Positions 1 through 29,122 of a stretch of DNA of 64,000 nt are shown piece after piece. The DNA comes from Tubulanus polymorphus. Its lineage: Eukaryota > Animalia > Nemertea. Where the stretch lies: positions 12,742,485 through 12,806,484 of the forward strand of contig NC_134027.1 of assembly GCF_964204645.1 (NCBI RefSeq), given 5' to 3'. Numbering within the stretch: position 1 is the first letter of the stretch; the number at the start of each line of letters is the position of its first letter. The notes beneath the pieces are model-generated. The model was not told where the DNA came from. It did no database searches and worked only from the letters and a program-made list of their open reading frames with translations. The position numbers and the translations under genes are program-made.

Positions 1-229
1 AATTTTCTTTAACTGTTTTAGGATCTAATATAATAAATTTATTATTTCTAGTAATATTTCTATCATAAGTTTGATTAAATTCATATGTTGGACAAAATAA
101 TACTATATTATCAAAATAGTTTTTATAAATAGTTTCTAATAAATTTAATATAAAATAAGTTTTTCCACAATTTGTTACGCCAGAAATTAACATATTATGA
201 GGTTCAAATATAATTAATTCCTTATTCAT
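1..229 (-). CDS. A32/FtsK-like packaging ATPase, N-terminal part (runs off the window)
   Basis: Manual translation MNKELIIFEPHNMLISGVTNCGKTYF contains Walker A (GxxxxGKT). Paralog of 3727-4206. Confidence 0.85.
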   Translation of the reverse strand, partial: MNKELIIFEPHNMLISGVTNCGKTYFILNLLETIYKNYFDNIVLFCPTYEFNQTYDRNITRNNKFIILDPKTVKEN

Positions 230-1353
230 TTATATATTTTTAATTTTACTTGATAATATCCATTCATTAAATTTATCTGGCCATCCAACCCATTTTACTA
301 AAGAATATTTTTTTCTTTTAACAGTTTTTGTTTTTAATACTTTTTCAATTTTATATTCTTGTTCTAGATTTTCAGTAGTTAAACTCAATTCTTCTTCATA
401 AAAATACCCATCAACTTCTTCACCATCTAAATCTTCTAATTTATAGACATATGGTTTTGTTGTTATTACCTTTTTTATTTTATATATTTTCCTAGTAAAA
501 TTTCGATCGTATCCTTTATCAAATATCTTTTTATATTTAGAAATTCTAACATTTTGACCAACTTTAAATTTAGGTTCACCAAAATCATCTACAAGAAATG
601 CCCCATATTAATTATTCCAAACAATTGCAGCATTTTCAGGTTTTCTAGCATCAATAGGTTTCATTCCAATAGAAGAATGATAAGAATTACTATATCCTTC
701 TATCAATTTTGGTAAAACGTCAATCCATTTAAAAGTATTATTTGCTGTAAAATATTTCCACATTCTTGTTCTTAATGTTCTATCAAATCGTTCAACAACT
801 GCAGCTTTTTTATCCGATTTTGTTGAAAAATATTTACTATTATGATTATCTAAGAGTTCATGAACAAGTGAATTATCAAATTCTTTTCCATCATCAAATT
901 GTATTTTTCCTGGCTTTAGTTTATCATCCGAAAGAAATTTTCTTAAAACATGTAATGTTTGTGCAGCATCTTTTCTATAAAGTGGTAAGCTCCATACAAA
1001 ACGATTAAAAATATCAATTATATTCAATATCCACCAAAAATCATCATTATCTTTCTTAACATTTTTCATATCAATTAAATCTCTTTACCACTGTTGATCT
1101 ACATAACTTACGATAGTTTTACGAGTTTTATATTTTCTAACAATTTTTTATGTGTTGTATATGTTGGTTGTTCTAACATAAATTGATTTATATCTTTATA
1201 TTTAACTAAATTTTGTGGGATTATCTTATCTAATTTATCTTGTTTTACTTGGCGCCATATATTTTTTACAGAAGAATAAGCAACCGAACTCTCAGGGTTG
1301 TAATATAGATTTCTTAAATATTGTTCTTTAGAATTAGTTTTTTTATCCCCCAT
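230..1353 (-). pseudogene. Retroviral-like (rve) integrase with C-terminal chromodomain, copy 1, disrupted
   Basis: IDIFNRF, IQFDDGKEF, VVERFDRTLR motifs; chromodomain-like KYSLVKWVGWPDKFNEWI near 260-310. Frameshift near 1108 and stop at 608. Confidence 0.9.
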
Positions 1354-1383
1354 TTATATATCGTTAATTTTAACTTTATATTT

Positions 1384-1922
1384 CTAATATTGAATACTAT
1401 CTAATTGAGAATTTACAATATTTAATTGCGCGTCAGATATAATATAAATGTGCATTTTGAAATTTAAACTTCCTTTTTTCTTTTTCATGAATAATTGTAT
1501 TCCATCTTTAGTGTTCTGTAGTTTTTTCCCAGAACCATGTAATAAATTATCTTCAGTTGTTCTGAAATCTAACCATAATGCATATTATTGCCGGTATAAT
1601 AATCAATTTGATTAATATTACAATTTTCAGATGATTTTACTTTTTCATTCATAAAATGTTTTCTAATTTCTGGCCATTGATCTATCATTCTCATTCCTTG
1701 ACAAAATATTTTACTTGCTATTCCTTCGATAGTTATTTCTACTTTTGTTATTTCAGGATTATAATAATTATCAACATTTATTGCGCCATTAGAATATGTT
1801 GCAATTGTAAAAAATATTAATACGCCTTAAATAGATCTTCTTGGGAAGTTAATATTCTCATTAATTATTTCATCATTTGCATTAATAGTTACAGTTTTAA
1901 ATTTAAACTCAATATAATCATA
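1384..1922 (-). pseudogene. Major capsid protein (double jelly-roll) 3' part, copy 1
   Basis: Near-identical to 9486-9950 (ALWLDFRTTEDN.LHGSGKKLQNTKDGIQL...SDAQLNIVNSQLDS). Ends at the copy 2 insertion site. Confidence 0.8.
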
Positions 1923-2391
1923 AGTAATAGGGGTAATGGGCTTTCAAGCCAAAGGTCGAAGGGTCGAGCTCATTAAAAAACAAAACATTAAAAGTAATTT
2001 AAAACTATAATATATTTTCATAACCGTGTGTATTTTATATTATAACTAAATATTTATTCTAAGATATTAATAATTTTAATTTTAAAAGCATATTGTATTA
2101 AATCAATTGGTCGCTCCACTTCGCTACCGCTCCGCTCCGCGACCAATTGATTTATTTACAATACACAAATTCATATAATCAAATATATTCAAATAATAAT
2201 AATTATTCTATTATTCAACTGAAATACACACGGTTATGAAAATATATTATAGTTTTAAATTACTTTTAATATTTGTTTTTAATGAACTCGACCATTCAAC
2301 CTTTAACCTGAAAGCCCATTACCCCTATTACTCTTAAAATATTCATGTAAATGAATAACATTTAAATTGACAGATTATTCAATATAAAAGT
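1923..2391. repeat. Left TIR (~469 bp); first 410 bp (1923-2332) form an imperfect palindrome
   Basis: Matches 26914-27382 directly and 22519-22875 in reverse complement. AGTAATAGGGGTAATGGGCTTTCA...TGAAAGCCCATTACCCCTATTACT; inner perfect stem 2099-2114/2139-2154. Confidence 0.95.
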
Positions 2392-2424
2392 GTAAGCTCT
2401 TATAGAATAGATATATAAATAGTT

Positions 2425-4206
2425 ATTTTATAAATTTATATTCATATGGAAATTGTAGTCTCAGTAATAATTTTGAACCTTTATTATTCTTTAATTTATT
2501 CATATATTCATCATGTAATTCAGTAGGTATAATTTGATTTTCTTCCAATGATTGTTGCATAGATTTTTGACGCCTTATAAAACGTTACCATTATGAAACC
2601 TAAACAATGTTAACCATTCAGCGTCATTTTACAAACGACAGCCGTAAATCGATGTGCAAAACGTCACAGGTCTATGTGTACACAATCAAGCTATTTGGCA
2701 AAATATTATTGACATAGACGTAGAATGGCTTCCTGTAATTATATAATGACCTATATTTGAACGTCGAAATGTTATATTGCATTGAATATCATTAGAAGAC
2801 GTATTGTAATAGTAAAGGATGTATGATTATATCAGAAGCGGCAGGCATAAATAGAAATGATAAGTAAATCGGATTATTCGGTTAAATGGCGGATGTATAC
2901 ACGATTTGGAAGTCTGATATAAAAGTCAGACCCTGACGTGGGCATGCCGGTGGAATGACGAAGCTATCTACGATGTGTGTAGGGCCGGCGTGAATTTCAT
3001 CAGCGGCTACAAGCGGTCAATATGAAAATGTGTAAACATATAATTTCAATATTCAAACGTTTTAGAAAATATGTTTGATATTAGGAGTATGCAGGTTTCG
3101 TGAGATTAGCAATTTATAATAGCATAGCTATCATATACGGCTCCGCGTCCTCTGATGGCATGTGTATTAGGTGACAATTCAATTCAATTCTTTATTGATC
3201 CTTATTACATTGAAATTTCGGGATAAAATTCCCAAATTCAATAAATAAAAATTTTAAAATAAATTAATACAACATACATGACACACGGGTAATTCATACA
3301 GAACAACATAAGCATGTTATTTTAAATGACAATGTCTACTTCAACCCACCCAGACTCTAGGATATCGAGTGACAGCCAAACCCGTGGCCCGGGCTGGCTG
3401 GCTAGGCCACACGATATGCTCGAAGTCATGATGAAGCAGACATCAGAAGAGCTCGTTCTTCAACCATGGAGGCAATGAAGTTGCAGACCAGCTTAGAGGC
3501 ATAAGTAAATGAAGTCAGTCGCAAGTTCGCGATCAATTATTGAGAATTTTCAATAAAAAAATTTAAACCACTACTAGAGTAGAAGACCCGCTGTATCATC
3601 TACCCAATCGCCAAATCTCATCATTCCCCAAATTTCTTAAAACTTCGATTTCAAATTTGCAATTCCACATTAGCTTAGCCCAGAAATTATACATTTTTTT
3701 CGCAGGCGTCAAATAATTTTCTAAAATTAATTTTCTTGTTTATCTTTGTTATAAAATAAAACTAGAAATCTTATATTCTCCCTAAAGTCTTTAATAATTG
3801 AATTATATTTTTGACTTAAAACCCATGTTGTTATCCCAAAATGTCTCCCAGAGAAAGCTAGATAACATAACTCACTTTCTCTCACTTTTAAATCATGTAA
3901 ATTTGCGCAATCATCTATAATGAATAATGTATTTGATCCTTTATAAGTATTTATTGCTATTTTAATACAATTATCTAAATTTTCTTTTACTGTTTTAGGA
4001 TTCAATATAATAAACTTTTTCATCTTAACTATATCTCTATTATATGTTTTATTCATTTCATAAGTAGGACAGAATAATATTATATTATCAAAATGATTCT
4101 TATAAATAGTTTCTAACAAATCTAATATGAAATGTGTTTTACCACAATTGGTTACACCAGTAACTAACATATTATGCGGTTCAAATATAAATAAATCTTT
4201 ATTCAT
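2425..4206 (-). pseudogene. Packaging ATPase of copy 2, split by a ~1.17-kb insertion
   Basis: Walker A GVTNCGKT, Walker B FIIDD, GRHFGI motif in 3739-4206. Frame resumes near 2566 as KSMQQSLEENQ...LQFPYEYKFIK*. Confidence 0.9.
2569..3738. other. Unclassified insertion interrupting the ATPase
   Basis: Higher GC than the viral flanks and no long ORF. Removing it restores FYNKDK-KSMQQ. Short inverted repeat TTTGACGCCT (~2566) / AGGCGTCAAA (~3704). Confidence 0.6.
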
Positions 4207-5310
4207 TTATTCTTTTAATTTTACTAGATAAAATCCATTCATTAAATTTATCATCATATCCTTTATATTTCACCAAAGAATACTTTTTCCTTTAAGAGTT
4301 TTTGTTTTCAATACTTTTTCTATTTTGTATTCTATTTCATCTGGGTTTGGCACAAGTGATAATTCTTGTTCATAGAAATAACCTAATATTTCTTCATCTT
4401 TTAGATCTTCTTATTTATAAACAAATGGTTTAGTTAATATTATCTTTTTAATCTTGAATATTTCTTCAGTAAAATTTGGAGTATAACCTTTATAAAAGGT
4501 TTTTCTTTATTTAGATATTCTAACGTGTTGTCCTATTTTGAATTTAGGTTCTCCAAAATCATGTGTAACAAATGCTCCATATAAATTATTCCAAACTATT
4601 TCTGAATTATCTTCTTTTCTAGCTCGTATAGGTTTCATATTTATAGAACTATGTTTAGAATTATTATAACCTTTCACTAAATCATCTCATACATCGATAT
4701 ATTTATATGTTTCATTAGCAGTAAAATATTTCCACATTCTAGTTTTCAATGTTTTATTAAATCTTTCTATAATAGATGCTTTTTTATCTGAGTGTGTTGA
4801 AAAATAATCTACATCGTTATCAGATGATAGTTTTTTTAAATGTTTGTTATAGAATTCCTTACCTTCATCAAATTGTATCTTATCTGGAATAGCTTCTTTA
4901 AATATAGATTTAAAAGCATTTGTTACTTCTATTCCAGTTTTATTTTTGATTGGAATTGACCATGCGTATCTACTGAATATGTCTATAACATTTAATATCC
5001 AGAAATATCCTTTGTTGTATTCCTCTAAGTTCTTCATGTCAATTAAATCTGCTTGCCATTGTTGATCGATATATGAAACCATAACTTTTCTTGTTAAATA
5101 AGTTTTATCCATTTTCTTGTGTATTTGATATGTTGGTTGATTTTGTAACTATGATTTTAATTCACTATATTTTATATCACCATGTGGGCGCCGTACGGCA
5201 CCATTTTCATTATCAGATTTAATTTTATTCCATAATTCTGAAACGTTAGAATATGATACTTCACTTTCTGGGTTATAATATAAATCTCTTAAATATTGTT
5301 CTTTTTTCAT
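4207..5310 (-). pseudogene. rve integrase plus chromodomain, copy 2
   Basis: DDE triad in WQADLIDM, IQFDEGKEF, IIERFNKTLK; chromodomain-like KYSLVKYKGYDDKFNEWI. Premature stops near 5150 and at 4687, plus frameshifts. Confidence 0.92.
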
Positions 5311-5316
5311 CTTATT

Positions 5317-5685
5317 TTAATCCATTAATAATAATCTTGGTTTATTTTCAATGACTTTATCATTTGATTTATTTTCTGGTATAATAGGTTTATTGTCATT
5401 GGAATCATCTTTATCATCAGATTTGAATTTTGATTTATATACTACACCGGATAATATAATAACTGTTACTAATCCAATTGTAATATATAATTTATAATTA
5501 CTTCCAGCATTAGAAGAATCAGATGGATTATTATTTGAATCAATATCAGATAAAGTCTGTGATTCATTTATATCAGTTAATTTCTTTTTCTTAGCTTTTT
5601 TTAATTCTGCAGATCTTTTACCTAATTCTCTTGCCCATTTAATTTGTTTCTCGGATCTAGCGTTTTTCTTAACGCTATCACTCAT
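5317..5685 (-). CDS. Small basic protein with one predicted TM helix
   Basis: 122-aa ORF with TAAATG start, Lys/Arg-rich N-terminus and hydrophobic LYITIGLVTVIILSGVVY. Confidence 0.7.
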   Translation of the reverse strand: MSDSVKKNARSEKQIKWARELGKRSAELKKAKKKKLTDINESQTLSDIDSNNNPSDSSNAGSNYKLYITIGLVTVIILSGVVYKSKFKSDDKDDSNDNKPIIPENKSNDKVIENKPRLLLMD

Positions 5686-6286
5686 TTATTTTAGTTAATT
5701 TTTGTTCTGATTCATTTTTTGTTTCGACGTTTGGTTGTAGTACAGCGACATCTGTTTCGTTCTTACCTGATTTATATTCCATAGGTTTGATGTTCGAAAA
5801 TGTTATGACACCAGTAGAAATTAATGTCATAACCGATCCTAATTGAAATGAAGCATAACCAACCCATTTTTGTAATTCAGTCATAACTAAATAGTCATTT
5901 TTCAAATCACTATATAATTTATTTTCATCATCAATTGGTATTAACTGGTTACATAACTTAGAATAACATTTGACAATGCCATCTGAAATAGAATCATTTA
6001 TTCTAGCTAATCTAGCTTCTTCATAAATCTTAAAATATTTTATTACTTTATCGGGTTTCATAGCATCTAGTTCTTGATAAGTTAAAATTTTTCCTAAGAA
6101 ATCCTTAGATTTCCAGCCAGCAATTAATAATTGAAGATGATGCTTACAATATAAATAGTATTCATAATCAATATTGTTATTAACTTGAATAGAATTAGAA
6201 ACAACTGTATCTTTATTATCACTTATGCCCAAATCATCTAATGTTTTTTCAATATCAATACTATTCTTATTAGATTTCTTTGACAT
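5678..6286 (-). CDS. Polinton hypothetical protein (202 aa)
   Basis: TAAATG start; truncated paralog at 28926; hydrophobic segment near the C-terminus. Confidence 0.75.
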   Translation of the reverse strand: MSKKSNKNSIDIEKTLDDLGISDNKDTVVSNSIQVNNNIDYEYYLYCKHHLQLLIAGWKSKDFLGKILTYQELDAMKPDKVIKYFKIYEEARLARINDSISDGIVKCYSKLCNQLIPIDDENKLYSDLKNDYLVMTELQKWVGYASFQLGSVMTLISTGVITFSNIKPMEYKSGKNETDVAVLQPNVETKNESEQKLTKINE

Positions 6287-7431: not shown

Positions 7432-8085
7432 TTAACATTCAACGTATTTTTCATTATGTGTTGAATTCCATAATTCAACAAATGTCTTTGCTTTATCCAG
7501 TTGATCTAAATATAACTGTAAATCTAGTTTATTAGATTTAATTATGTTTTCCTTCTTTTCTAAAGGCCTTAAATTTTTCCAACTCCAAATAAGTTTTTTA
7601 TTGTATTCATCATTCATGTTAAATTTAGATATTGGTAACACATGATCAATATGAAAGTATTCACCATAATTATCTATATTCATTTTATCATCGAATTGAT
7701 ATATTATCCATGATATGAAAAATTCATCTGTACAACCCAATAACTTAGATAGTGTTTCTGAATGTGTTTCTTTGTTGAATAATTGTGTTAATCTAGATCT
7801 TAAGCATTGTTTCAATCTAAAATTAAGATCAGTTTGATATCTTTCTCTCATATATTCTGTCATATAATCATTATAAGCTTCTCTATTATCTTCTCTGTAT
7901 TGTTTGGTATATAGTTTAGTACAAGTTTTACAGCAATATTGAAAACCATCTTTGCTAATCTTACGCTTATTAGATTCTGTTATAGCTAATTTATCTAATT
8001 CACATTTAGAACACTTCTTGTAATATATATTTATAACACCAGTGTTATTTGTAATATTGATAATTTGTGGTTGTTCTGGTTCCAT
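7432..8085 (-). CDS. HNH-family endonuclease with N-terminal CxxC...CxxC zinc finger (NCLDV/phage type)
   Basis: KKCSKC...CKTC; FHIDHVLPISKF...WKNLRPLEKKENIIKSNK. Paralog at 27885-28667. Confidence 0.85.
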   Translation of the reverse strand: MEPEQPQIINITNNTGVINIYYKKCSKCELDKLAITESNKRKISKDGFQYCCKTCTKLYTKQYREDNREAYNDYMTEYMRERYQTDLNFRLKQCLRSRLTQLFNKETHSETLSKLLGCTDEFFISWIIYQFDDKMNIDNYGEYFHIDHVLPISKFNMNDEYNKKLIWSWKNLRPLEKKENIIKSNKLDLQLYLDQLDKAKTFVELWNSTHNEKYVEC

Positions 8086-8619: not shown

Positions 8620-9453
8620 TTAATCACTTTCACTATCAGACCCTAACAATTTATTCAAATTCTCTACCGATTTTTCTTCTTCAAATTCTTTATTATTTTT
8701 ATACTTTTTCATCCTTTCTACCGCATCATCAATAGTTTCTTCTTTATGTTTCATAGAATCTTTATTATCAATATGCTTATCTGTAACTATATCACCATGT
8801 GGGTGCCATACGGCACCATTTTCATTATTATCTTTATTAGTGTTTGCTCCTAATATTTCATTTACAGTGTTTGATTCTAATATTTTATAAGCATCGGTTA
8901 AATCTAATTCATCTTTATTAGGTGTTGCTAATAATAAATCTTCATATATCTTTTCACCATTTACTTTTTTATTTGAAACAAACTTTGTAACATATCTAAA
9001 TGGGTGTTCTAAAAATTCTCTTTTACCAACACGTTCTATAACATTATTTATATGTACCTTTGTATTCATATGTTTATTCAAATTTGATGGAGCGTTTGAA
9101 AATTCACCTTTACAATAATCACAATAATTTCTATTTTCACTAACATTTAATATTATTGCATTATTTGATGTAGAAGGTATTACATTATTAGATGTAGAAG
9201 GTATTAAATTATTAGATGTAGAAGGTATTACATTATTAGATGTAGAAGGTATTACATTATTATCAATTACATTACTTAAATTATCAACAACACCACTTTT
9301 ATTATTATCGATTTCTATTAGTTTAGTTTTATAAATTTTGAAAATAGGATCAAATATCAAAGCTATATTACAAGGTATTACATAATATAAACCATCATTA
9401 TTTTCATGTGTATCGATGTATGGAATATGTTTATATACTTTACCTCCTTCCAC
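8620..9453 (-). CDS. Hypothetical protein with 8-aa repeats and a C2H2-like zinc finger
   Basis: (NN[V/L]IPSTS)x4 from 24-bp tandem repeats; YCDYCKGEFSNAPSNLNKHMNTKVH. Start context TAAGTG looks like a mutated TAAATG. Confidence 0.7.
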   Translation of the reverse strand: MEGGKVYKHIPYIDTHENNDGLYYVIPCNIALIFDPIFKIYKTKLIEIDNNKSGVVDNLSNVIDNNVIPSTSNNVIPSTSNNLIPSTSNNVIPSTSNNAIILNVSENRNYCDYCKGEFSNAPSNLNKHMNTKVHINNVIERVGKREFLEHPFRYVTKFVSNKKVNGEKIYEDLLLATPNKDELDLTDAYKILESNTVNEILGANTNKDNNENGAVWHPHGDIVTDKHIDNKDSMKHKEETIDDAVERMKKYKNNKEFEEEKSVENLNKLLGSDSESD

Positions 9454-9485: not shown

Positions 9486-10662
9486 TTAATACATAACACT
9501 ATCTAATTGTGAATTTACAATATTTAATTGTGCGTCAGATATAATATAAATGTGCATTTTGAAATTTTTGATTCCTTTATTCTTTGTCATGAATAATTGT
9601 ATTCCATCTTTAGTGTTCTGTAGTTTTTTTCCAGAACCATGTAATGAATTATCCTCTGTTGTTCTAAAATCTAACCATAATGCGTATTTATTACCGGTAT
9701 AATAATCAATTTGATTAATGTTACAATTTTCAGATGATTTCACTTTTTCATTCATAAAATGTTTTCTAATTTCTGGCCACTGATCATTCATTCTCATTCC
9801 TTGACAAAATATTTTATTTGCTATTCCTTCGATAGTTATTTCTACTTTTGTTATATACCTTTAATAGATCTTCTTGGGAAGTTAATATTCTCATTAATTA
9901 TTTCATCATTTGCATTTATAGTTACAGTTTTAAATTTATCAATATAATCATATAATAATGAAAATCCTTGATTGTATTTAGTTTGAATTATACTTGAAAT
10001 ATTTTCATCAGTTACTGTGTCATATTCTAAACATATATTTGATAATTTATAACTCATATCTTTATTAACGCTAGATATTACAATTTCATTTACAGGAGCA
10101 AATGTTATCTCAAATATAACATCTTCTTGAATTGCGTATTTATATAAAGGTGCATTATTATTTATCAATTCAAAGTCTAATGGAATTTTATATTTACTTC
10201 CATATATACTTTTTATCAATTTATCTACAGCATTAGTTAATATTGCATTATGCGCTTCTGATCTTAATTTATTTTGGTTTTCTGATTGGATTCCTTGAAA
10301 TATCATATTATTTCTATTTTCTTTTGTTAACCATAAATCTTTATAATGCATAAATAAATTATAATCATCTAATGAGAAAACTGTTTCTGGACCAATCTTT
10401 ATAGTTAATTTTTTAATCAAATATCTTCCAACATTATCAACAACATAATTATTATTATTACCGATTACTTTTATATCGGCTGATAAATAAATACTATTTG
10501 GAACATAAAAGTATTTTGTGTTAATCTCGGAATTCTAACATATAAAGTTTCATCGGGATTAATATTAGAAGGGTTATGAGTAATTATATGATGAGATCTT
10601 TCTGCTTTAATAGCATTAGATATTCTATGATTCTTAGAAGGATTGATATAACTCCCACTCAT
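9486..10662 (-). pseudogene. Major capsid protein (double jelly-roll), copy 2, frameshifted
   Basis: Three consecutive ORFs (10471-10662, 9851-10420, 9486-9797) join to roughly 390 aa with beta-rich motifs (NPSNINPDETLYVRIP, YKLSNICLEYD, INFPRRSIKGI, ALWLDFR). Size and position fit a Polinton MCP. Confidence 0.8.
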
Positions 10663-10694: not shown

Positions 10695-12261
10695 AATCAT
10701 GTTTACTTGATATTTTTTGATATCATATTTATTAACCCAAAAATAATAGCACTTACAACTGTAATTAAAAATAAAATAATATGTTCAGCTGCAAAGTTAA
10801 TAATGTTTCCTGCAGATTTCAATATAAAACCAACAATTGATGCAATAATTCCAGGTAATGCTGCAGCAGATTTTTTAGATAGTTCCCATAAATATTTTGC
10901 TAATTTCTTTAAACCATCCTTAACTTTGGTATTGCTAAACCAATTGTTGTAAATACCATAGTAACAGATGTTAGAATTGAAAGAATTGTTATACCTTCTA
11001 ACTTAAATAATAATCTTATTCTGTCTTTTAATAATATTTCAGAATTTGGTTTTATCAACAAATCTTTAAAAATAACTTTTAATTTTTTAATATGATTAAG
11101 ATCATATGATTTTAATAATGTATCTCTTTCTTCTTTTTGTAATTCTATATTATATTCTAAATCATCTATTTCTTTTACTAAAGCTAACTTTCTGCTTTCA
11201 TAATCAGCTTCATAAACTACTTGACGATCTCTATTTAATTCTAATTGTTTTAATTCTTCATCTGCATTAACTAATTCTTTTTCTAACATGGTTATTTTAT
11301 AAAATCTCATCTTAATATTAGCAATTTCATCAGATGATTCTTGTATACCTTTAATTACTCTACGTGATTGTCCAGGAAATTCTTTTGATTCTTCATCAGT
11401 TAAATCAAGAAATCCTTTTTCTAGTAAAGATAGTATTCGATTTATTCTAGTACTATTCATTTCTTCTTCTGAATCACTTAATCTATCAATTTGTTTTTCT
11501 AATGTTAATTGTAAATGACTTGAATCATTATCAATTTGTTGAATATCTCTTCTCGATGTTTCTGGATCAACATCGGTAGGATTTGGATTTGGATTTTTAA
11601 ATGGTGAATATTTGTTTATATCAATATTAGGAATTGATCCTTCTTTATTTATTCTATCAAGTGCATTCAATATAATTCTGAGAAATTCTGTGCCACCTTT
11701 TGAACGTTCAATTGTAGATCTTGCTAACATTTCAGGTTCAAAAATATTTTCTTGACCCACTTTAGATAATTGAATTGATACAATTTTGTTATGTAAATTA
11801 ACATTATAATACCATGAATCATTTTTATATTCTAAATTATTCGTGAAATATGGGTCATCTTTAAAAATTTGTTCTACAACATCTTCTGTATCAATATCAC
11901 GTATTGCATCTATTTCTAATAATTCGTTAACAATTGTATCTGTTACTCTAGATTTCATTTTAAATAATTCCATAGGTTCATCAGGATATTTTTCTTGTTG
12001 TTTAACTAATAGTTCCATAAATTCTTTTCTTTCTCTTTTAGTTGAAATTCTACCAATTTCAGGAGCTTCTAAATATTTAATTAATTTTTCACGTAATTCG
12101 GAATTAATTCCATCATAATCATCATCTTCACCTAAATTAGTATTATGTGCTGATGAATTATCATCATCAATATTAGTTTCACTAATATCAGGTTGTTGTT
12201 CATCACTTATACCAGGTTCATCTAAAGGGCCCAATGGAAAACCTTCTCCACCTTCTGCCAT
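10695..12261 (-). pseudogene. Large acidic/coiled-coil protein with C-terminal hydrophobic helices (frameshift near 10925)
   Basis: 450-aa ORF continuing in another frame as GLKKLAKYLWELSKKSAAALPGIIASIVGFILKSAG...IILFLITVVSAIIFGLI. Confidence 0.7.
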
Positions 12262-16130: not shown

Positions 16131-19100
16131 TTATAATACATATTTTCATTAAAATTTGATTAACACGTTAGAATTCTTTTCATTATCTCGTTCTCTTTTG
16201 TTTCTTCTCTTTTAAATTTTAAGTATTCATCTAAATTGCAACCAAAAGCAACTGTATGAATTCCATCATCTAAAATATATCTTTTATCATCAAATGGGTT
16301 TAGACTTATCTTTTCAATTTCTTCAATAAACATTTCATGATCTTCAGATCTTAAACATCTCATTTTATGTTTTCTAACTTCTTCATTGAATATACAATTG
16401 ATGTAATCTTTGAAATGAATATTCTTTTCTACTACACTTTTGGTTATTCCTTTTAACTTTTTAGCTTCATGTTCTTTAGTTTTATATGAATACATTTTAG
16501 ATCTAATACCTATGAACTCTTTCATTTCTTCACCGCCTTATTCATCCTTAAACTTCCCTGGAACTTTTTTATTATCATTGCTAAACAATTCATGATCTTT
16601 AGGATAGTTACTAAAATCAAAATGATGTTTTAATGTTTTTAAATCATCTGTTATCTATCAGTTTTTATCTTTAATATGTAACTGTCGGTATCAAAATATA
16701 ATATTTCTATATGTTTTTCTCCAAAAAGTGGTTGTAATACATTATAATAGAATTCATACATTAGTAATTTTGATAATTCTAAAACTGAAGCGCCAACATA
16801 GATTGGTTTATTAAATTCCATTGATGTTCTTCTCATCTTAACTGCAGCTAAATTTTCATCAAATATTCTTTTACCTATAAATTTAGGATATGATTGTAAA
16901 TGTCTAATTCTTTTGCCATTACTAACTAACTCAATATCATTTCTATTTCTAATATTTTCACAAGTCTTACCATAGAATGCATTATTCATTAACTTGAAGA
17001 AATCTTTCTCGAAATCAGTTTTAGCTTCAGTTCTCTGTTTGGTGTTAAAATCTATATATTTTTCTAACCACTTAGATTGACTAAATGAAATATATCTATG
17101 CACTTTTTTTAGAATCATTCCTTGATTCAAATAAAACTTTAACATTCTATAATGTACTACATAATTATATTTATCTTCTTGAGTTACCATTAACTTTTCT
17201 GTATGAATATGATTTTCGGGTTTAATTCTTTTTTGATAATTTGATAATTCTTCATGAGTTACGGTTTTATGTTCGGGACAGTAAGCTAGATTTCTAGATT
17301 TAAATTTAATATGTTCAGGATATTCTAAATCTACAACAAAGAAGTAACCAGTATCTGAATCATCTGCAATATCTAGAATTCTTTTCTTTCAATCAAATTT
17401 ATCATTATTTACATTCTGTAAAACTTCACTTATTTCAAATACTCCATAAGGTTGTGGTTCCATCATTGCCCAACCATACAAATTATTTGCATCTATATAT
17501 AATAACTTATATCCAGGGTTATCATTTACATTGAAATATCTATCCCCTAATACACCTGAAACTCCTCCTCTTATAGATTTTTCAAATAATAGTAATTGAT
17601 CTATATTTGTTAACAAATCCATTTTTATATCTGTAAATTCTAAACCACAATCCCATGTTAAACCTGGTGATGAATAACAATGACAAGGATCAATGTCAAA
17701 ATATTTAAGGTTAACATCTCTAAACCTTTCGAATATATCGGTTAATAATAATACATCTGATTTTAAATATATATCTACTAATTGTCCATGATTTTCTATT
17801 TTGAAATGATTCCAAATATTCAATGTTCTATTATATACTTCATCTTTAACATATTCATTTTTTAATTCATCATAGAATTGTTCTTTTAATAATTCAGTTA
17901 TGTTAAAATCATTATGATTTTTATAGAAAGAATATGGAATTGCTCCTTTATATCTCATTAATTGAAAATCATCATTATTTGGATAGTGTTGTTTTAATAT
18001 TTTTAATTCATCATCAACTAATGATTTTGATAAGTTATCTAATGAACTATTTAAAAATCTATATGAATCTATAAATCTTAGGCAACCAAATTGGAATGAT
18101 ATATAATTCTCAGATGTTTTAGCTAACATTCTAAATTTATAAGTTGGTATTTTATCTTTTGATCTATTTGAATTTAATATTTCTATTTCATTATTAATTT
18201 CTTCTATTTTATGACATAACTGTTTGATGAATAAATGTGCATCATATCCTGATAGATTATGAAATATAACTGGTACAAAATTAATTTTCTTAGCTTGTAA
18301 GTTACAATTCTCATGTGCAGCGCATCTAAACTTTCCATTCAAATGATCATGGTCTCTTACTTTTTTATCTTTATAATTAAATATCTTTTCACAATAATAA
18401 CATTTATCTGCAAACGCAAATTCTTCTTTATCTTCTTCTGTCATTATAATTTCTATATTTGTATTCAATAATTTACTAAATCTTATTTCATATTCAATTA
18501 ATAAGTCACAAAAATGATTGATAACATTTTCATTTCTATAATCACAATATTCACTTTCAATTAGTTCTGGATAATCAGATTTTATATATAACCCGAAAGC
18601 AGCAGCTGATTGATGAATCTTTTTAATATTATTTGTTTTTGGTGGTTCATCTGAAAAATCATTTTCATTAGAATTTAATTTCTTTCTTTTATAATATATT
18701 TCTTTTCTATCTTGATCAGTTAATTCTTTATTTAATGATTCAAAATCTCCATATATTACAAATGGAACTTTATTTTTGTAATCATATTTTTTGAATTCTG
18801 AAAATTTTATCCTTTTCATTTGGTAAAACTAATTTACAATAATCATGATTTTCACATAATTGTTTATGATTTAATAATGTACTTTCATTACTGAATCTAT
18901 GTAAACATTTTCTACAAAGATATATTTTATGGTGATCATTTTCTGATTTAAAAAATAAATCGATTTGTTTAATCCACATATAATGATTCTCATAATATAG
19001 TATATCTATAACATCGTTTGAATCATAATCTTTTGATAGATATAAAGGTTCTAATGTATAATGTTTTATATTGTTACCTTTTGTATTTGGTAATTTGATT

Positions 19101-19840
19101 GAATCAAATACATTTATTCTTAAATTATTATCTCTTTCTATCTTTGGGACGTTTTTAATTCTAACAGGATACTTATCTATCTTATAATTATTTTCAAATG
19201 GTTTATAATGAGTTAATCTAAAACTATGTTGTTTATAATCTTCAACTGGGTGTAAACAACTTATTATAGCCCATAGAAAACATTTATCATCTTCATTTTG
19301 TACATTTATTACAGCATTAGTTTTAAATGGTAGTTTGATATAACTCGATGCTTCAATATCTGGTTCTTTATAATATGATACATTATTTTCATCAATTGGT
19401 TTTGATTTAGTTAACTTATTATATTTTGTGTTATAAACATGTAAAGTCATAAATATTATTTCATTAAATATTAAACCAGATCTTTCAAAATATTTCTCTT
19501 CTATTTTAGTTTTTACTTCATTATAACATTTATCTAATTTAGCATCTATATGTTGTTTTGAAATAATATGTTGTGAATGAGAATTTATATTATATATTGG
19601 TTTATCTTCAGATTTTATGAATTTAACTTTAGAAGATATACTAATTTTAGGATATTCAACATCAGTTATTATTTTTATTATTTCTTTCATATTTTCTAAA
19701 TGTTTTTTATTTTCTTCTAATGTTTTTCCTTTATGAAATTTAAACTCGATAGCTGCTAGACCAATATCACTTTTAAATGCTTCGGTTATCTCTATATCTT
19801 TTTTATTATCTAATGAATTAATATAATTTCTTACATCTTC

Positions 19841-22061
19841 CAGGGAAGTGTGATGAGATGGAATACGGACGCTTTTAATTGCCGGATGTAGGCTATTCAA
19901 TTCAGCCCGTACATCAAAGGTTACCGCAACAGCTGTAAGCTACGCTTATCGAGTGTGTGTTACCAGCTGAATACCAGTCAACATCAACTTTGATTCGGTC
20001 GCAGAACAACCCGCAATAGTTTTAGCCCGATAAATGTTCTGCGATCGATACTACGCATGCGCACTGCAGTTCATTGAACCACGTGGAAGTGGCTGTGTAT
20101 ATACATATTTTTGTTTAGAAAATCGGTTGAAATTCAACAATTTCTCGTAAAATTTGTCCAAAAAGGTATGTATTTTTATTCTTCTATATCTCCGAAACCC
20201 GGAATCGGAACATTAAGTATTTATATTGTGATTAAAGTCTGTTTTTATGTGTTAAACATATGTTTTTGCCAGTTCGTTCCGATTCCGGGTTTAGCGTTAT
20301 TTGGGCCTTGAAGATGTCAAATATTTCGGCCCAGACTCGCGCAGCTTTCGTTTCTGACGTCATGTTGCTATGTTACGACACAAACATATACACGAAGTAT
20401 GATCTTTAAAATGTGTATTTACTACATGATAATGTTACTTAATAACGCTTTCATTAGGCCTACAAATTATTGTCCCCCATATAAACCAAGTTACCTAAAT
20501 AGCATCAGCAATCTCATTTAATTAACCTTTTCTTGTTTTTAGTCATGGATCTTTGTCGATTGTGTGGAAAAATGCGAAACCTCCGGATCGTCGTCCTATC
20601 GATAAAAATAATTTCAAAAGCCATGTGAAGGAGTTGTTCAACATTGATTTTGATGATGATACTGAACAGTACCCGATATATATCTGTAATATGTGTCGTG
20701 TCAAATTACAAAAATGGCGTAAGAACAAAAACGTTAAAAAAACTGTCCCTGTGACTATCACAACATGAAACTTTGCCCACATTTTATCCAAATCTTTCGC
20801 AGTGCTTATGTGAATGGCGGAACATAATGTATCTTGAATTTTTGTAAACCACTGGTTAATTCCAAGTCTGGACGGTGACGTATTTGTAGTCAAAGTTTTA
20901 TCGATCGATTTTCCATAATGTACTGCTGCCATTCCATTTGAACTGAATTTAAATACTCGATGGTTAATCACTTCAGTCATAGCCTTTTCCAAATATATAG
21001 TGTTCCTGCGAAAATAATAATAATGATTATAATTTTAACATGTACTTATCTGGATTTTTTATATTATGTTTATATATTATTTTCTGTATTCGTTTATTAT
21101 TTTATAACCTAAAAGGATTGTATTGATTATAAAAATAAATGTAAAAAATACCTGTATGTGTGTTTTCTCGTGTTCAGATCGCAGTCTCTGGTCAGCTGTG
21201 CCTGAGAAGTACCTATATGAAAAAGAAAAGGAAAGAATGAAGTGCCTGCAATTAGGTGGAAACTATTCCGATCTTTCATTGATTTCAAAAGGAATAACAC
21301 TCACAAGAATCGGCCGAATTAGTTGATCCTGATCCAGAGGATTCCCGTAATATTTCCGTATCGATCTGAACCAATTCGTCACTATCAAAGAATAGATCGT
21401 CAAAATCGTCATCATTTATAATTTCGTTGACAACCGTTACCATTTTAATACAGCGGAAAGAACCGATATCACGATTGATAAAACACTATATCCGTCTGAA
21501 GCGATGTAGAGAGAATCCCACAATGATAACGAAAAAGTCCAAAAATGTTAGTAGTTTATTCAACGTTTCGTCTATGTCCTAATAGTCATCTTCAGAAATA
21601 ATGAATACTACAGAAATTATGAGAGATATATACAATCCAGAGACAAAGAGACTAATTCAAGTAATCAGAGATGATACTAACTAAAGGAAAATTAACGTAG
21701 AAACAGTTACACGCTAAAACAGATTAAAGAGAAGCAGTTAAGAGACAAACTAGGGGGCACTTAAATTTAAGACAATTGTGAATACAAGTTGATCGACTAA
21801 AATTGATGAGGGGAAATCAGATGTTGAGTTTAACCAGTTTACAGAGGAATTTTTATATAAGTTTATTATGGGATGAAAAACCGATATTCGGAAACAACTG
21901 AATTATTACGGAGATTCCCGATCTCGCTGGTTATCGCTTATCGGCGCGTTACGTAACAAAGCGCTCGCCGACGAACCGTTATCGGCTTTAGGGCAATTAC
22001 AACGCACATTCGACAAGAGCTGCACAATAGCGTCCGTATTCCATCTCATCACACTTCCCTG
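19841..22061 (+). mobile_element. Non-autonomous cut-and-paste DNA transposon (CAGGG termini; P- or hAT-like, superfamily uncertain)
   Basis: Perfect 33-bp TIRs CAGGGAAGTGTGATGAGATGGAATACGGACGCT (19841-19873, 22029-22061). TSD CATCTTC at 19834-19840 and 22062-22068. Removal restores pPolB RPYMEDVRNY. Confidence 0.92.
20545..20825 (+). pseudogene. RAG1 N-terminal (Chapa)/ZAD-like zinc-binding domain remnant
   Basis: MDLCRLCGK, frameshift, ...VKELFNIDFDDDTEQYPIYICNMCRVKL..., frameshift, TFYPNLSQCLCEW. Preceded by a pyrimidine tract and AG at 20541-20542. Confidence 0.55.
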
Positions 22062-22518
22062 CATCTTCCATGTATGGTCTTTTATTTTTTAATTTATTTT
22101 TTATGCTTTTAATTGTCTTCTGTTTCTTATCATTATCATTATCAAAATATTCTTCACCTAAAATATCATTATTGATATTTCTAATATGACTTTTAGATTT
22201 TAAATGTTCTTTATAATATCTTTTATCACTGAATGATTGATTACATGTATCACATTTGTATGTTTCTTTTCATTCTTTAATTCATCTAATTTAGTTTCTA
22301 ATATATCATCTTCATATTCTAATTTCAATTTATTCTAATTTCAATTTATTCTCTAAATGTGTTTTAGTTTTATTATGTCTTGCTTTCTGGGATTTATCTA
22401 TACTGATATTACATGTTGGACAGTAGTACTTATTTGCTTCCATTTTAATACTAAATTTTTTATTAAAATTGATTTTAGAAGTTCAATGATTTATATCATG
22501 TATTATTTCAATCACACT

Positions 22519-22875
22519 AAAAACAAATATCAAAAGTAATTTAAAACTATAATACATTTTCATAACCGTGTGTATTTCAGTTGAATAATAGAATAATTAT
22601 TATTATTTGAATATATTTGATTATATGAATTTGTGTATTGTAAATAAATCAATTGGTCGCGGAGCGGCGCGGTAGCGAAGTGGAGCGACCAATTGATTTA
22701 ATACAATATGCTTTTAAAATTAAAATTATTAATATCTTAGAATAAATATTTAGTTATATATAAAATACACACGGTTATGAAAATATATTATAGTTTTAAA
22801 TTACTTTTAATGTTTTGTTTTTTAATGAGCTCGACCCTTCGACCTTTGGCTTGAAAGCCCATCACCCCTATTACT
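22519..22875. repeat. Right TIR of copy 2 (inner part deleted)
   Basis: Reverse complement of 1923-2280. Lacks the ~180 bp present in copy 3 at ~27272-27453. Confidence 0.93.
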
Positions 22876-24003
22876 ATCATATAATAATGCAAATCCTTGA
22901 TTGTATTGAGTTTGAATTGAGTTAGCAATATTTTCATCAGTTACTGTATCATATTCTAAACATATATTCGATAATTTATAACCCATATCTTTAACAACGC
23001 TAGATAAAACAATTTCATTTACAGGAGCAAATGTTATTTCGAATATAACATCTTCTTGAATTGCGTATTTATATAAAGGTGCATTATTATTTATCAATTC
23101 AAAATCTAATGGAATTTTATATTCCTTTTTTTTAATTTTTGTTAATATATTTTCTGGAATCGATCTATTTTTATCATTATGAATTGAATCTTCAAATAAT
23201 ACTTTGAATTGTTTCTGTGTATCAAATGATGTATTTAAATTTCCAATTATTGGGGATCTTGTTTCAACTTGCGGACCTAAAATACATATCAAATAAGTTC
23301 TAATAGATTGATTTATTCTTTGTATACCTAATTTAGTAAAACCTTCACTATTTTCTAAAATGAAATTAATCCAACCATTATTATTATCAATTTTATAATT
23401 ATGATAAGCTCCAATTCTATGCATATAATCAATTCTTTTTATTTCATACTGTTCACCAATACCTTGCACTTTACCATGCGCTCTAAAATCGGATTTAATA
23501 TTTCTATTAAATTCATTACATATTTTATAAAACTTAGATAGATTAATATTATTATCCAATTCTTTAAAATATTTAGACCCAGGCAAAGGACATTCTAATT
23601 CATTTAATATTATTCTGATTAGAAAATATGTGTGAAATCTAAATATTGTGTGAATTAATTTTAAATCAGAATAATTCAAATTTTTATCTAAGTTATTTAA
23701 ATGATCATTCCAACTTATACAACAACCAGTTGTTGCACAATAAACAGCAAAAGTTAATTGATTCTGCCAATATTTCATATTAGATTTTACTTTATATATA
23801 TGATATCCATTTCGAGTAAAAGTAACTTCATATGTATTAATTATATTTTCCATTTTAGAAATGAAAAACTCAGTAACATAAATTTCTAAATTAGTTAATG
23901 AATTTAAAACTAAATTTTTATATGAAATATCTTTATTAAAATCTATTGCAGGAATATTATATTTAATTGATTTATTATATTGGAAAGCTTTTGGAAACCC
24001 CAT
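22876..24003 (-). pseudogene. Copy 1 deletion fusion: conserved protein (paralog of 12283-13603) joined to the middle of MCP
   Basis: ...DKNRSIPENI joins YKIPLDFELINNNAPLYKY...QGFALLYD, then runs into the TSD and TIR of copy 2. Confidence 0.8.
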
Positions 24004-24019
24004 TTATATAATAAAAAAA

Positions 24020-24454
24020 TTAATAATTTATTAATTCTTTTAATAATTTATCTTGTTCTTCAACTGTTATATGGCCATTTAAACTTTTTATATAATCTAG
24101 TGTATTCTTCAATTTATTAATTTCTTTTATATTAGTTTTAATTTTTTCTTTATTACATTTTATATTTAATTTTGAACTTATACCAGTTAAAACACTTGAT
24201 GATAATCCTAACACACCAATTGATATAGCTAAAGGTGTTAATGGACTGAATATTGCTAGAAATGTTATTACAGAACTAATTGTAACTGAACCACTGATAA
24301 TAAAATAATATATAATTTTACTTTTTAAATATTTTTTCTTTTTTATCTTTAAGTCACTTTTAAATTCTAATATTTGTTTTTCTAAATATATTTTTAATTT
24401 AGTTTTATTTATATCATGAGGAATAATATCAATATTATCAACTTTATCATCCAT
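24020..24454 (-). CDS. Small two-TM protein, copy 1 (144 aa)
   Basis: Longer paralog of 13620-13940; TAAATG start. Confidence 0.75.
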   Translation of the reverse strand: MDDKVDNIDIIPHDINKTKLKIYLEKQILEFKSDLKIKKKKYLKSKIIYYFIISGSVTISSVITFLAIFSPLTPLAISIGVLGLSSSVLTGISSKLNIKCNKEKIKTNIKEINKLKNTLDYIKSLNGHITVEEQDKLLKELINY

Positions 24455-24473
24455 TTATTTAGCAAATAATTTA

Positions 24474-24882
24474 CTAATTAGTAAATTTATATGCTACAAA
24501 TATAACAATAACTGTTCCACCTAAAATCCAAATTATTTCATATTTCTGTTGTTCTTTAATTGGGGTGTAACAATCTGATAATTTAGGTTTGTATAGATGT
24601 AATTTTTCTTTATTGGTTACCGCGTTATATAAACTCATTGCATCATCAACTGATTGAAAATCTCTATGTGAAATCTTCTGATCATATAATTCCTTGTTAA
24701 TATAATCCATGTAATTTTGTCTCTTCTGCAGCTTTATTATATTTCTCTAATGCTAAGTTATGTCTTTTTTGTTCTGATAATGAACCATTTTTATCAATAT
24801 GCTTAAATAAATAACCACCACCAGTAAATGCTAAAGCGTTAACAATTGCCGATCTTATAATAGTTATAATTGCAGAAGCCAT
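24474..24882 (-). pseudogene. Small membrane protein, copy 1, frameshifted
   Basis: Two ORFs that together match 13961-14383. Confidence 0.8.
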
Positions 24883-24907
24883 TTATTTAACAAAAAAAAT
24901 ATGCATG

Positions 24908-25484
24908 TGTATGGGAGGAATATATTTTTGTTTTTCCAAACAATCAATAGTTAAATTAGATAAAGTAACTGCTAATGTTAATTTTAAAATATCATTGATA
25001 TCAAATCTATCAACATTAACACTTCCCATTTTAAATATTTTTTTAATACCATTGAATAACCAACAGTTCCAACTGATAGTAAGGCTCCATTATATAATCC
25101 AGTTATTATCCACTTATTATCGCTCATTTTTTAATCAAAAAAATTACTATCTTCAAAATATTTAGTTATCTTAGTGATGATTAATTCAACATTTATTTCA
25201 TTACTACTTTTATGATTATCATATATTTTAGATAATATGTTTTTAATATCATCAATAATTCCCAAAAGTTTAGCTTTAGGTTTTTTTACCATAAATTTAT
25301 GTTTTTCAATATTAGACAACCTTATCTTTATTCTATCAGAACTATCACTTTTTAAAAATCTAATACTAAACCCGGAATTACTACCTAACTTGTGCCAGGC
25401 TTTTCTATTAATTTCTTGTGCCAATGTATCTAAATTATATAACCCTGATTTTAAATATATATAGGACCATTCATTTTTACCATT
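24908..25484 (-). pseudogene. Copy 1 remnants: 73-aa gene paralog, and a penton fragment fused to the 118-aa gene C-terminus
   Basis: LKSGLYNLDTLAQEINRK...FMVKKPKAKLLGII joins SNEINVELIITKITKYFEDSNFFD. Confidence 0.7.
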
Positions 25485-26913: not shown

Positions 26914-27382
26914 AGTAATAGGGGTAATGGGCTTTCAGGCCAAAGGTCGAAGGGTCGAGTTCATTAAAAACAAAACATTAAAAGTAATTTAAAACTATAA
27001 TATATTTTCATAACCGTGTGTATTTTATATTATAACTAAATATTTATTCTAAGATATCAATAATTTAAATTTAAAAAGCATATTGTATTAAATCAATTGG
27101 TCGCTCCACTTCGCTCCCGCTCCGCTCCGCGACCAATTGATTCATTTACAATACACAAATTCATATAATCAAATATATTCAAATAATAATAATTATTCTA
27201 TTATTCAACTGAAATATACACGGTTATGAAAATATATTATAGTTTTAAATTACTTTTAATATTTGTTTTTTAATGAACTCGGCCATTCAACCTTTAACCT
27301 GAAAGCCCATTACCCCTATTACTCTTAAAATATTCATATACATGAATAACATTTAAATTGACAGATTATTCAATATAAAAGT
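26914..27382. repeat. TIR of copy 3 with 410-bp fold-back (26914-27323)
   Basis: Near-identical to 1923-2391. Confidence 0.95.
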
Positions 27383-27529
27383 ATATATTTACAACATTAT
27401 TTCAATATTTATATTTGTATGAGTTAGATTTTTAAACATTAAAAGTGTTAGCAAAGTGTGATTGAACTAATGCATGATATAAATCATTGAACTTCTAAAA
27501 TCAATTTTAATAAAAAATTTAGTATTAAA

Positions 27530-27817
27530 ATGGAAGCAAATAAGTACTACTGTCCAACATGTAATATCAATATAGATAAATCCCAAAAAGCAAGACACAA
27601 TAAAACTAAAACACATTTAGAGAATAAATTGAAATTAGAATATGAAGATGATATATTAGAAACTAAATTAGATGAATTAAAGAATGAAAAAGAAACATAC
27701 AAATGTGATACATGTAATCAACCATTCAGTGATAAAAGATATTATAATGAGCATTTAAAATCTAAAAGTCATATTAGAAATAAGAATAATGATATTTTAA
27801 GGAATGAAAAAGGATGA
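27530..27817 (+). pseudogene. pPolB N-terminal double C2H2 zinc-finger fragment
   Basis: YYCPTC...HNKTKTH and YKCDTC...HLKSKSH; same sequence as 22443-22180 on the minus strand. Confidence 0.8.
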
Positions 27818-27884
27818 CGTTAGTCGAAGAAATGGAAGAGGATTCTAAAATGTTAATCAATTTTAATAAAAATATATATTATAA

Positions 27885-28667
27885 ATGGAGGAACAATCAC
27901 AAGCTATACATATAAACAATAATGGTGTAATAAATATATGCTATAAGAAATGTAATAAGTGTGAATTGAATAAATCATTAACAGAATTTCAAAAAAATAA
28001 AACTAAAAAAGATGGCAAACAAACATATTACAAAAGCTGTACTAAACTATACAATAACAAATTTCTTGAAAATAATCCAAATTATTCAACACAATATTAT
28101 ATGGATAATATTGAAAAATTCAAAGTTAGAAATAAACAATGGAGAGAAAATCACTCAGATTATATAACCGAATATATGAGAGAATGGAGGGATAATAATA
28201 GAGAATATTATAAAGCGTATCAAAATAATTATAAGAAAGAAAGATATCGAACAGATTCTAATTACAAATTGAAAAAATGTTTAAGATCTAAAGTATCAAA
28301 ATTATTCAGTAAAGAAAACCACTCAGTTACACTAGCTCATTTATTGGATTGTTCAGATAAATTTTTTAAATCATGGATAATATATCAATTCGATGATAAA
28401 ATGAATATAAATAATTATGGCAATTATTTTCATATTGATCATGTGTTACCAATATCTAAATTTGACATGAATGATGAATATGATAAAAAGTTAATTTGGA
28501 ATTGGAAAAACCTGAGACCTCTTGAAAAGAAGGAAAATATGATTAAACATGACAAACTAAATTTACAGTTATATTTAGAACGGTTAACAAAAGTAAAGAA
28601 ATTCATTGAATTATGGAACAATAATCCAAATAATGAACAATATGTTGAATCTTTATTGAGTGGTTAA
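27885..28667 (+). CDS. HNH endonuclease, intact 260-aa ORF
   Basis: KKCNKC; FHIDHVLPISKF...WKNLRPLEKKENMIKHDK; TAAATG start. Confidence 0.85.
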   Translation: MEEQSQAIHINNNGVINICYKKCNKCELNKSLTEFQKNKTKKDGKQTYYKSCTKLYNNKFLENNPNYSTQYYMDNIEKFKVRNKQWRENHSDYITEYMREWRDNNREYYKAYQNNYKKERYRTDSNYKLKKCLRSKVSKLFSKENHSVTLAHLLDCSDKFFKSWIIYQFDDKMNINNYGNYFHIDHVLPISKFDMNDEYDKKLIWNWKNLRPLEKKENMIKHDKLNLQLYLERLTKVKKFIELWNNNPNNEQYVESLLSG

Positions 28668-28925
28668 AGATTAATACATCTCAAATAAAATATAATAAAA
28701 ATTACATACCTTCAACTAGCCATTATTTCTATTTTAATTTTTAATATTTTCTTTTACAATTCTTTTCAAAAGAGAATACTTTACATCACAAATAAAAAAA
28801 ACAAAAAAAAAAAACAATAACTAATACTAAAATTCTTTACCTTTAACTAAGCTAGTATTAATCTAAAGAGATACTGGTATCATTTATAATACTTATATTT
28901 TTTTCGCTTTTTTTCTCTAATATAA

Positions 28926-29122
28926 ATGTCAAAGAAATCTAATAAGAATAGTATTGATATTGAAAAAACATTAGATGATTTGGGTATAAGTGATAATAAA
29001 AATACAGTTGTAACTAATTGTGCTCAAGTTAATCGTAATATAGATTATGAATACTATTTATATTGTAAGCATCATCTAGAACTATTGATTGCCGGTGGAA
29101 AAACTAAAGAGTTTTTAAATAG
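28926..29122 (+). pseudogene. Truncated paralog of the 202-aa gene
   Basis: MSKKSNKNSIDIEKTLDDLGISDNK...HLELLIAGGKTKEFL, then the junction with the array. Confidence 0.8.

Follow-up and report, generated by a model that had tools for sequence, protein, structure and literature searches.

We analysed a 64,000-nt window of the genome of the nemertean Tubulanus polymorphus (NC_134027.1, positions 12,742,485 to 12,806,484) that holds a Maverick-Polinton of ~21 kb (1923–22875), and found that its genes share a start signal of two parts: a tract rich in A and T, with a T fixed at −12 relative to the start codon, followed by TAAATG, in which the ATG is the start codon itself. This signal is restricted to one clade of polintons and resembles poxvirus promoters. 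On balance, the comparison suggests that the genes of the clade start with poxvirus-type late promoters that are probably read by the polymerase of a co-infecting poxvirus-like virus, on which the elements would depend as provirophage-like parasites.

A first-pass annotation of the window had listed 20 TAAATG starts and four variants (two TAAAATG, one TAAGTG and one TAAGATG), and all 24 coordinates are correct. The 20 exact starts, 18 on the minus strand and two (27885 and 28926) on the plus strand, are real but not independent, as 13 lie in a single element bounded by terminal inverted repeats (TIRs) and seven in two other copies. When each gene was counted once, TAAATG was present at 13 of the 16 starts of the element, compared with 29 of 495 other minus-strand ATGs within it (binomial p 5e-14); the remaining three starts read TAAAATG (PolB), TAAGTG (9453) and TAAGATG (5310). 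Draws matched to the composition of the 30 nt upstream of each gene averaged 1.4, with no more than 7 in any of 20,000, and the motif is thus in clear excess over both internal ATGs and composition-matched controls, the check that had been set for it. Short spurious open reading frames (ORFs) called by the same definition had TAA before ATG in 61/728 cases in the window and 79/1398 in clade loci, and bias from the ORF definition is small. The T tract described upstream is real, and its 3′ end is fixed at −12 in 14 of the 16 genes. Intergenic gaps, said often to be ~15–40 bp, ran from −8 to 29 bp in the nine cases measured.

Restriction of the start signal to one clade

Capsid alignment retrieved 72 metagenome loci and one genome locus (L001–L073), a sample biased towards what two peptide patterns could retrieve. 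In a capsid tree of 61 of the 74 rows (13 short rows were omitted, L036 among them), the window and L001–L014 form one branch with support of 100/98; this clade was defined after the motif had been seen, and the tree was built without using the motif. ORFs of at least 80 amino acids in the 15 closest loci start with TAAATG in 52 of 61 cases. For ORFs with a homologue in the set, the count was 53/62 in the 15 clade loci and 7/267 in the 58 others, with five of these seven in L031 and L046, and the comparison with other polinton clades that the first-pass annotation had suggested therefore confines the motif to one capsid clade. At −3, the base is T in 87% of starts within the clade and A or G in 71% outside it.

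Base composition does not account for this pattern. Clade loci span 20–44% GC and keep the motif at 40–44% GC (L010, 3/4; L011, 2/3), whereas seven AT-rich outgroup loci carry TAAATG at 1 of 20 starts. The region itself has 24% GC and its 20 starts include duplicates, as would be expected if the motif were an artefact of AT richness, duplicate copies and ORF calling, but composition-matched controls fall short by many orders. Taken with the outgroup and non-start controls, they rule out an AT-richness or ORF-calling artefact, and we give this explanation practically no weight.

Outside the clade, the separate lineages L031 and L046 have TAAATG at 3/3 and 2/2 of their conserved-family genes, with T at −12 inconsistent (2/5). 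Starts in the AT-rich outgroup loci L019, L022, L023, L026, L034 and L073 read TA(3–8)TG, and a T lies nine bases upstream of that T in 14 of the 21 such starts listed, possibly a weaker version of the same promoter. The start-codon context has switched at least three times among the sampled capsid lineages.

The signal was profiled on 68 dereplicated starts, which remained after seven starts were removed and near-copies collapsed. TAAATG is present at 61 of these. The seven removed starts all lack the motif; six belong to truncated or spurious frames, whereas L011:2451 seems genuine, and its inclusion makes 61/69 the fairer count. All seven exceptions among the 68 retain TAA no more than 6 nt from the start, and three of them read TAAATATG or TAAATAATG. 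A T occupies −12 in 62/68 starts, compared with 58/153 TAAATG occurrences that are not starts, and an A occupies −4 in 57/68. Both TAAATG and T at −12 are present in all four subclades. Within the virion block, a class of our own, T at −12 was found in 41 of 42 starts, and T residues at −17 to −12 numbered 4.0, compared with 2.9 in other genes (p 0.009, for classes that are our own and rows that are not independent); this excess may loosely recall the late and intermediate promoter classes. TGAAA is enriched upstream (19/71 starts, 11.0 expected), with no fixed position.

The motif is also found where no upstream gene ends. At back-to-back starts TAAATG was present in 16/18 cases overall and 15/16 in the clade, in which the paired starts lie 19–72 bp apart with no upstream gene ending between them. 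This is hard to reconcile with a translation signal, whether for stop–start re-initiation on polycistronic RNA or as an in-frame stop against upstream read-through. Such a role would suit the dense packing and mostly shared orientation of the genes in the window, and the TAA is the stop codon of the upstream gene at 3 of 20 window starts (229, 14629 and 24882) and, in the loci, at 1 of 39 tandem starts; that it mostly is not had been recognized from the outset. However, TAG or TGA precedes the ATG in 1 of 57 long clade ORFs and TAA in 49, although TAG or TGA is the stop codon of 15 of 57 clade genes, and T at −12 and A at −4 would be left unexplained. We consider a translation signal very unlikely.

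Poxvirus likeness and the source of the polymerase

We compared the signal with published promoters. In the vaccinia P11 promoter, a T run ends at −12 before TAAATG (PMC7117657, Table 1), and a T ten nucleotides upstream of TAAAT is conserved in late promoters (PMC11980589), which corresponds to −12 or −13 depending on the way of counting; for the numbering of this '−10' T we rely on one sentence of a review and on the P11 sequence. TAAA is read directly by the RNA polymerase of poxviruses (PMC12917281), conserved genes of salmon gill poxvirus are likewise marked by TAAATG (PMC4542343), and TAAATAATG, seen among our exceptions, also forms the end of the vaccinia A3L and A6L promoters (PMC7117657). 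The clade thus shares with vaccinia intermediate and late promoters TAAAT(G) on the start codon, an A/T-rich upstream core and a T run to −12 as in P11 (PMC11980589, PMC12917281, PMC5294985, PMC7117657). It differs in that nearly all of its genes, replication genes included, carry TAAATG and that no polymerase was detected, in a comparison made by sequence alone. The likeness to poxvirus post-replicative promoters is stronger than first claimed, as it is clade-restricted, includes T at −12 and holds on back-to-back starts. Of the 'pox/asfar-like' helper that had been proposed, the pox half matches the TAAAT initiator; the asfar half fits less well, as the passage on African swine fever virus describes a TATATA-type element (PMC5294985).

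That the element has no RNA polymerase gene had also been stated, and we detected no subunit in either the window or the scanned clade ORFs by sequence searches of Pfam, PHROGs and PDB and a single fold search with the unassigned genes, although small divergent subunits could escape such searches. A viral-type initiator could nevertheless serve a polymerase from a non-poxvirus source: a different large DNA virus, a linear cytoplasmic element akin to the yeast virus-like elements (VLEs), or rare polinton copies with transcription genes. VLEs initiate at TAAAN with slippage (PMC6211774), the separate lineages L031 and L046 also use TAAATG, and the outgroup polinton L015 carries a gene resembling the late transcription factor VLTF3. 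However, the VLE motif ATNTGA is not enriched (10/71 starts, 9.8 expected), no polinton-encoded subunit was detected in the scans above, and T at −12 with TAAAT merged into the start codon matches published poxvirus late promoters. We judge a non-poxvirus source unlikely. The VLTF3-like gene lies at L015:5082–5576 (PF04947, E 4e-5, just under the cut-off), in a polinton without TAAATG. L015 and L016 group with the TAAATG-using L031 in the capsid tree (99/93), and the zinc-ribbon gene of L031 has no detectable kinship to the VLTF3-like gene.

Alternatively, the genes could be transcribed in the nucleus by host RNA polymerase II (Pol II), which would use a compact core promoter specific to the lineage and produce near-leaderless or read-through mRNAs, with the poxvirus likeness convergent or a relic. 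Integration at many sites places the element in the nucleus, amplification would need no helper, AATAAA overlaps 22 of the 57 starts scored, and the TA(3–8)TG of AT-rich relatives is compatible with a host-type A at −3. Yet T at −3, the base least favoured by scanning ribosomes, is avoided by the sister polintons, TATA boxes are not enriched upstream (12/71 starts, 18.1 expected), and back-to-back starts 19–30 bp apart leave scant space for a pair of Pol II promoters. The frequency of AATAAATG is alike at back-to-back starts (7/18) and tandem starts (15/39), which argues that it is not the poly(A) signal of the upstream gene. Internal AATAAA and splice-like motifs do not separate the clade from the outgroup. 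Transcription by Pol II seems improbable to us.

Clade genes also avoid T runs on the sense strand. We used synonymous-codon shuffles of 76 clade and window genes, in which TTTTT[ACG]T was one of seven patterns first tried. It occurred 10 times, compared with 30.1 expected (0/300 shuffles were as low), and was low in all six clade subsets, and TTTTTT occurred 7 times with 29.8 expected; TTT[ACG]TTT was not reduced (35 versus 36.5 expected), nor was TTTTT[ACG]T in outgroup loci of up to 40% GC (13 versus 13.9 expected). TTTTTNT is the vaccinia early terminator (PMC7117657), and the avoidance, although a weaker signal, would fit a U-rich terminator of this kind. A terminator placed directly after stop codons was rejected as a general rule, with T5NT within −30 to +150 of 13/36 tandem and 4/8 convergent ends.

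Under the reading that we favour, transcription by a poxvirus-like helper, each gene would have its own ~20-bp promoter, to be read by a poxvirus-type polymerase provided in trans. By analogy with vaccinia and the yeast VLEs (PMC6211774), transcription would begin inside the AAA of TAAAT, and slippage would add a poly(A) leader at the 5′ end, so that in the mRNA the unfavourable T at −3 would be replaced. U-rich tracts may end the transcripts, and copies may gain access to the helper machinery in virions or as free DNA and integrate again by means of their own integrase.

Several points weigh against this reading. A copy in a chromosome is out of direct reach of a cytoplasmic polymerase, and many germ-line insertions are hard to explain if the integrase too needs a helper. 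The early-promoter motif AAAANTGA is not enriched (3/71 starts), and L011:2451, a gene start that looks genuine, lacks the motif. TAAA initiators are not exclusive to poxviruses, as the yeast VLEs use them (PMC6211774), and, given the TA(3–8)TG starts of the AT-rich outgroup, the motif could represent a host-type context in shortened form. Avoidance of T5NT extends to the virion block (5 versus 19.3 expected), though in vaccinia T5NT acts on early genes. Subclades B, C and D show the mirror pattern TNT5 as depleted as T5NT, outgroup L015/L016 are without T5NT as well (0 versus 2.9 expected), and sense A5 runs are also reduced (ratio 0.88), so that the T-run signal may be a general avoidance of long runs. 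No helper was found: 19 viral contigs fit the promoter pattern and none had at least three TAAATG starts, in a collection that may hold no poxviruses. Scans of viral contigs with the ATPase, the major capsid protein (MCP) and the MCP alignment gave no match, and the kinase of L001 led to one unrelated contig, L074.

Anatomy and classification of the element

The element ends in AGTAAT...ATTACT, with a 6-bp duplication (ATCATA) at either side, a length typical of Maverick-Polintons, and its inverted termini are 98% alike over 362 bp. All 16 of its genes are on the minus strand (Table 1). Self-comparison and mapping of relatives show that it is nested within the capsid gene of an older copy; the window holds one full-length element and parts of two other copies that carry the same genes. 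PolB, capsid, integrase, ATPase and several other genes are fragmented, so this copy is dead: the element is full-length but decayed.

Table 1 Features of the window
Feature	Position	Strand	Remarks
Older outer copy, left	1..1922	-	MCP end, integrase (TAAATG 1353), ATPase (TAAATG 229)
Left terminal repeat	1923..2332	+	~410-bp end, itself an imperfect palindrome
A32 packaging ATPase	2426..4206	-	TAAATG; interrupted by ~1.15-kb insertion; PF04665 E 5e-13
rve integrase, fragmented	4205..5310	-	TAAGATG start; PF00665 E 7e-9
122-aa gene with hydrophobic segment	5317..5685	-	TAAATG
202-aa all-helical conserved gene	5678..6286	-	TAAATG
HNH/endonuclease VII-like gene	7432..8085	-	TAAATG; phrog_1035 E 2e-14 for the copy at 27885
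Zinc-finger gene, 277 codons, clade-only	8620..9453	-	TAAGTG here; TAAATG in L002–L004
Double jelly-roll MCP, fragmented	9486..10662	-	TAAATG and T tract
~485-aa conserved gene, broken close to end	10715..12261	-	TAAATG and T tract
~440-aa conserved gene, fragmented	12293..13603	-	TAAATG and T tract
Short membrane-type gene	13620..13940	-	TAAATG and T tract; weak SLATT-like match in 144-aa copies
140-aa conserved gene	13961..14383	-	TAAATG
73-aa conserved hydrophobic gene	14408..14629	-	TAAATG, its TAA the upstream stop
118-aa gene	14630..14986	-	TAAATG
Probable minor capsid protein, two pieces	15003..15762	-	TAAATG; label from size and conservation
117-aa gene	15777..16130	-	TAAATG, T at −12
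Protein-primed PolB, N-terminal C2H2 fingers, fragmented	16160..22443	-	TAAAATG start at 22443; PF03175
Unrelated 2.2-kb insertion within PolB	19841..22061		Inverted ends and 7-bp duplication
Right terminal repeat	22515..22875	-	Sharp end, many differing flanks in reads
Older outer copy, right	22876..25460	-	Remaining MCP and virion block (TAAATG 24003, 24454, 24882)
Third copy, internally deleted	26914..29141	+	Terminus, PolB start (TAAAATG 27530), HNH (27885), 202-aa start (28926)
Host satellite DNA, 35 kb, outside the element	29390..64000		Interleaved 31-bp and ~155-bp units

The TIRs and 6-bp duplication, protein-primed PolB, rve integrase, A32 ATPase and double jelly-roll (DJR) capsid are hallmarks of a Maverick-Polinton, which the element is by gene content; from gene content only, it is probably of group 2. 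The PolB match to PF03175 has an E value of 1e-11, and the relatives P0056 and P0058 align to it from 22437 down to 16163. At its N terminus, Pfam, used with no profile–profile comparison, gives C2H2 fingers in relatives and no OTU match. The MCP is 76% identical to P0001, the model of which matches iridovirus, Paramecium bursaria chlorella virus 1 (PBCV-1) and virophage capsids (DJR, E 1e-13). The probable minor capsid gene belongs to the same family as L001:565–1329 and ten outgroup ORFs. Homologues of the HNH gene are few and none has an informative name, and comparison of the clade-only zinc-finger gene with the atlas gave sub-threshold leads only.

An adenain cysteine protease and an OTU-like domain at the PolB N terminus are features of group 1 Maverick-Polintons and adintoviruses as surveyed by Starrett et al. 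No adenain was found, either as a Pfam match or by a crude motif search of the window and L001–L073; since it was likewise not found across L001–L073, its absence is not peculiar to the clade. As for Virophaviricetes, no protease was detected and virophage capsids, at 9–12% identity, ranked below other DJR capsids. The element is not a taxonomic virophage, although it may work like mavirus. Group 2 Maverick-Polintons and adintoviruses have in common with it the protein-primed PolB, rve, A32 ATPase, DJR capsid and inverted termini (10.64898/2026.06.19.733378, PMC8502044), and, as has been reported for group 2, a replication gene of SF1-helicase type is present in the relative L018. It differs from them in that most related polintons sampled lack TAAATG and in that adenain was not found here. 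Maverick-Polintons are nearly always in animal genomes (10.64898/2026.06.19.733378), and the named PolB relatives are from insects and a coral, except for one row labelled Sulfurimonas. PolB relatives P0066 and P0069 contain inteins with LAGLIDADG-type endonucleases, and clade member L001 encodes a deoxynucleoside kinase (10340–10981; PF01712, E 2e-31) that starts with TAAATG.

We examined 12.9 million genomic reads from a run labelled as the same species in another study. Of these, 64,180 (0.5%) fall on 16.2 kb of the element, and 1007 cross the terminus at 22875 into unlike flanks (agreement 0.34); because reads leave the terminus into differing flanks, the family is inserted at many sites. 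Free ends showed no pile-up at the terminus in run X5. The termini at 1923–2332 and 26914–27323, each ~410 bp, are imperfect palindromes that close with a second copy of the terminal motif and could fold back. The outer and inner copies are 73% alike in integrase and ATPase (1–1170 versus 3978–5139) and 93% in the virion block (13905–14758 versus 24419–25259), which suggests module exchange between subfamilies. Homology between copies stops at the start motif, the shared promoter being followed by different genes (1350–1751 versus 9450–9854; 16111–16181 versus 27835–27901), and gene cassettes appear to swap at TAAATG. The 2.2-kb element at 19841–22061 has a weak zf-AD match, and a 34-bp relic of its ends was found in five reads of run X5.

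Comparable systems and biological meaning

Polinton-like viruses (PLVs) occur in the occlusion bodies of entomopoxviruses (PMC11296320). AHEV_PLV1/2 and CBEV_PLV1 are, like the elements studied here, small and capsid-encoding; they are proposed poxvirus parasites, and one lineage is a divergent maverick-polinton branch. They were found physically in occlusion bodies and have a cysteine protease and no rve integrase (PMC11296320), whereas the clade, as set apart by these descriptions, has rve, no detected protease, many insertions and a poxvirus link through cis-signals. Mavirus and the endogenous mavirus-like element (EMALE) provirophages of Cafeteria are likewise integrated, with clade-specific promoter motifs read as helper specificity, and their reactivation depends on carrying the late promoter of the helper (PMC8547959, 10.1101/2025.10.09.676808). 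Their host is a protist, their helper is of the Mimiviridae, and their motif and capsid lineage are different; dependence was shown there by experiment and is read here from sequence. The yeast linear elements pGKL1/2 share the TAAAN initiator, with 5′ poly(A) leaders made by slippage, but encode their own RNA polymerase and use the upstream ATNTGA that is unenriched in the clade (PMC6211774).

A literature search, with subscription journals outside its coverage, turned up no title on poxvirus-type promoters in polintons, and the word 'promoter' is absent from the main text of PMC11296320, PMC8502044, both 2026 PLV preprints including 10.64898/2026.06.19.733378, and the egovirus preprint. New here are the fixed T at −12, the motif on back-to-back starts, and the threefold avoidance of sense TTTTTNT and T6. 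More tentatively, we raise the wider possibility that a whole clade of germ-line-integrated animal polintons consists of provirophages of an undiscovered poxvirus lineage, with its late promoter and U-rich terminator, activated by infection and perhaps acting as a heritable antiviral defence.

These findings bear on how polintons, which have no RNA polymerase, are transcribed, and on whether animal polintons are autonomous or helper-dependent. If the helper reading is true, it predicts that a poxvirus-like virus awaits discovery in this host group, the provirophage model would cover animals as well as protists, and start-codon context would assign a helper type to any polinton from its sequence. 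A clade-restricted promoter of poxvirus type makes the question of a helper directly testable.

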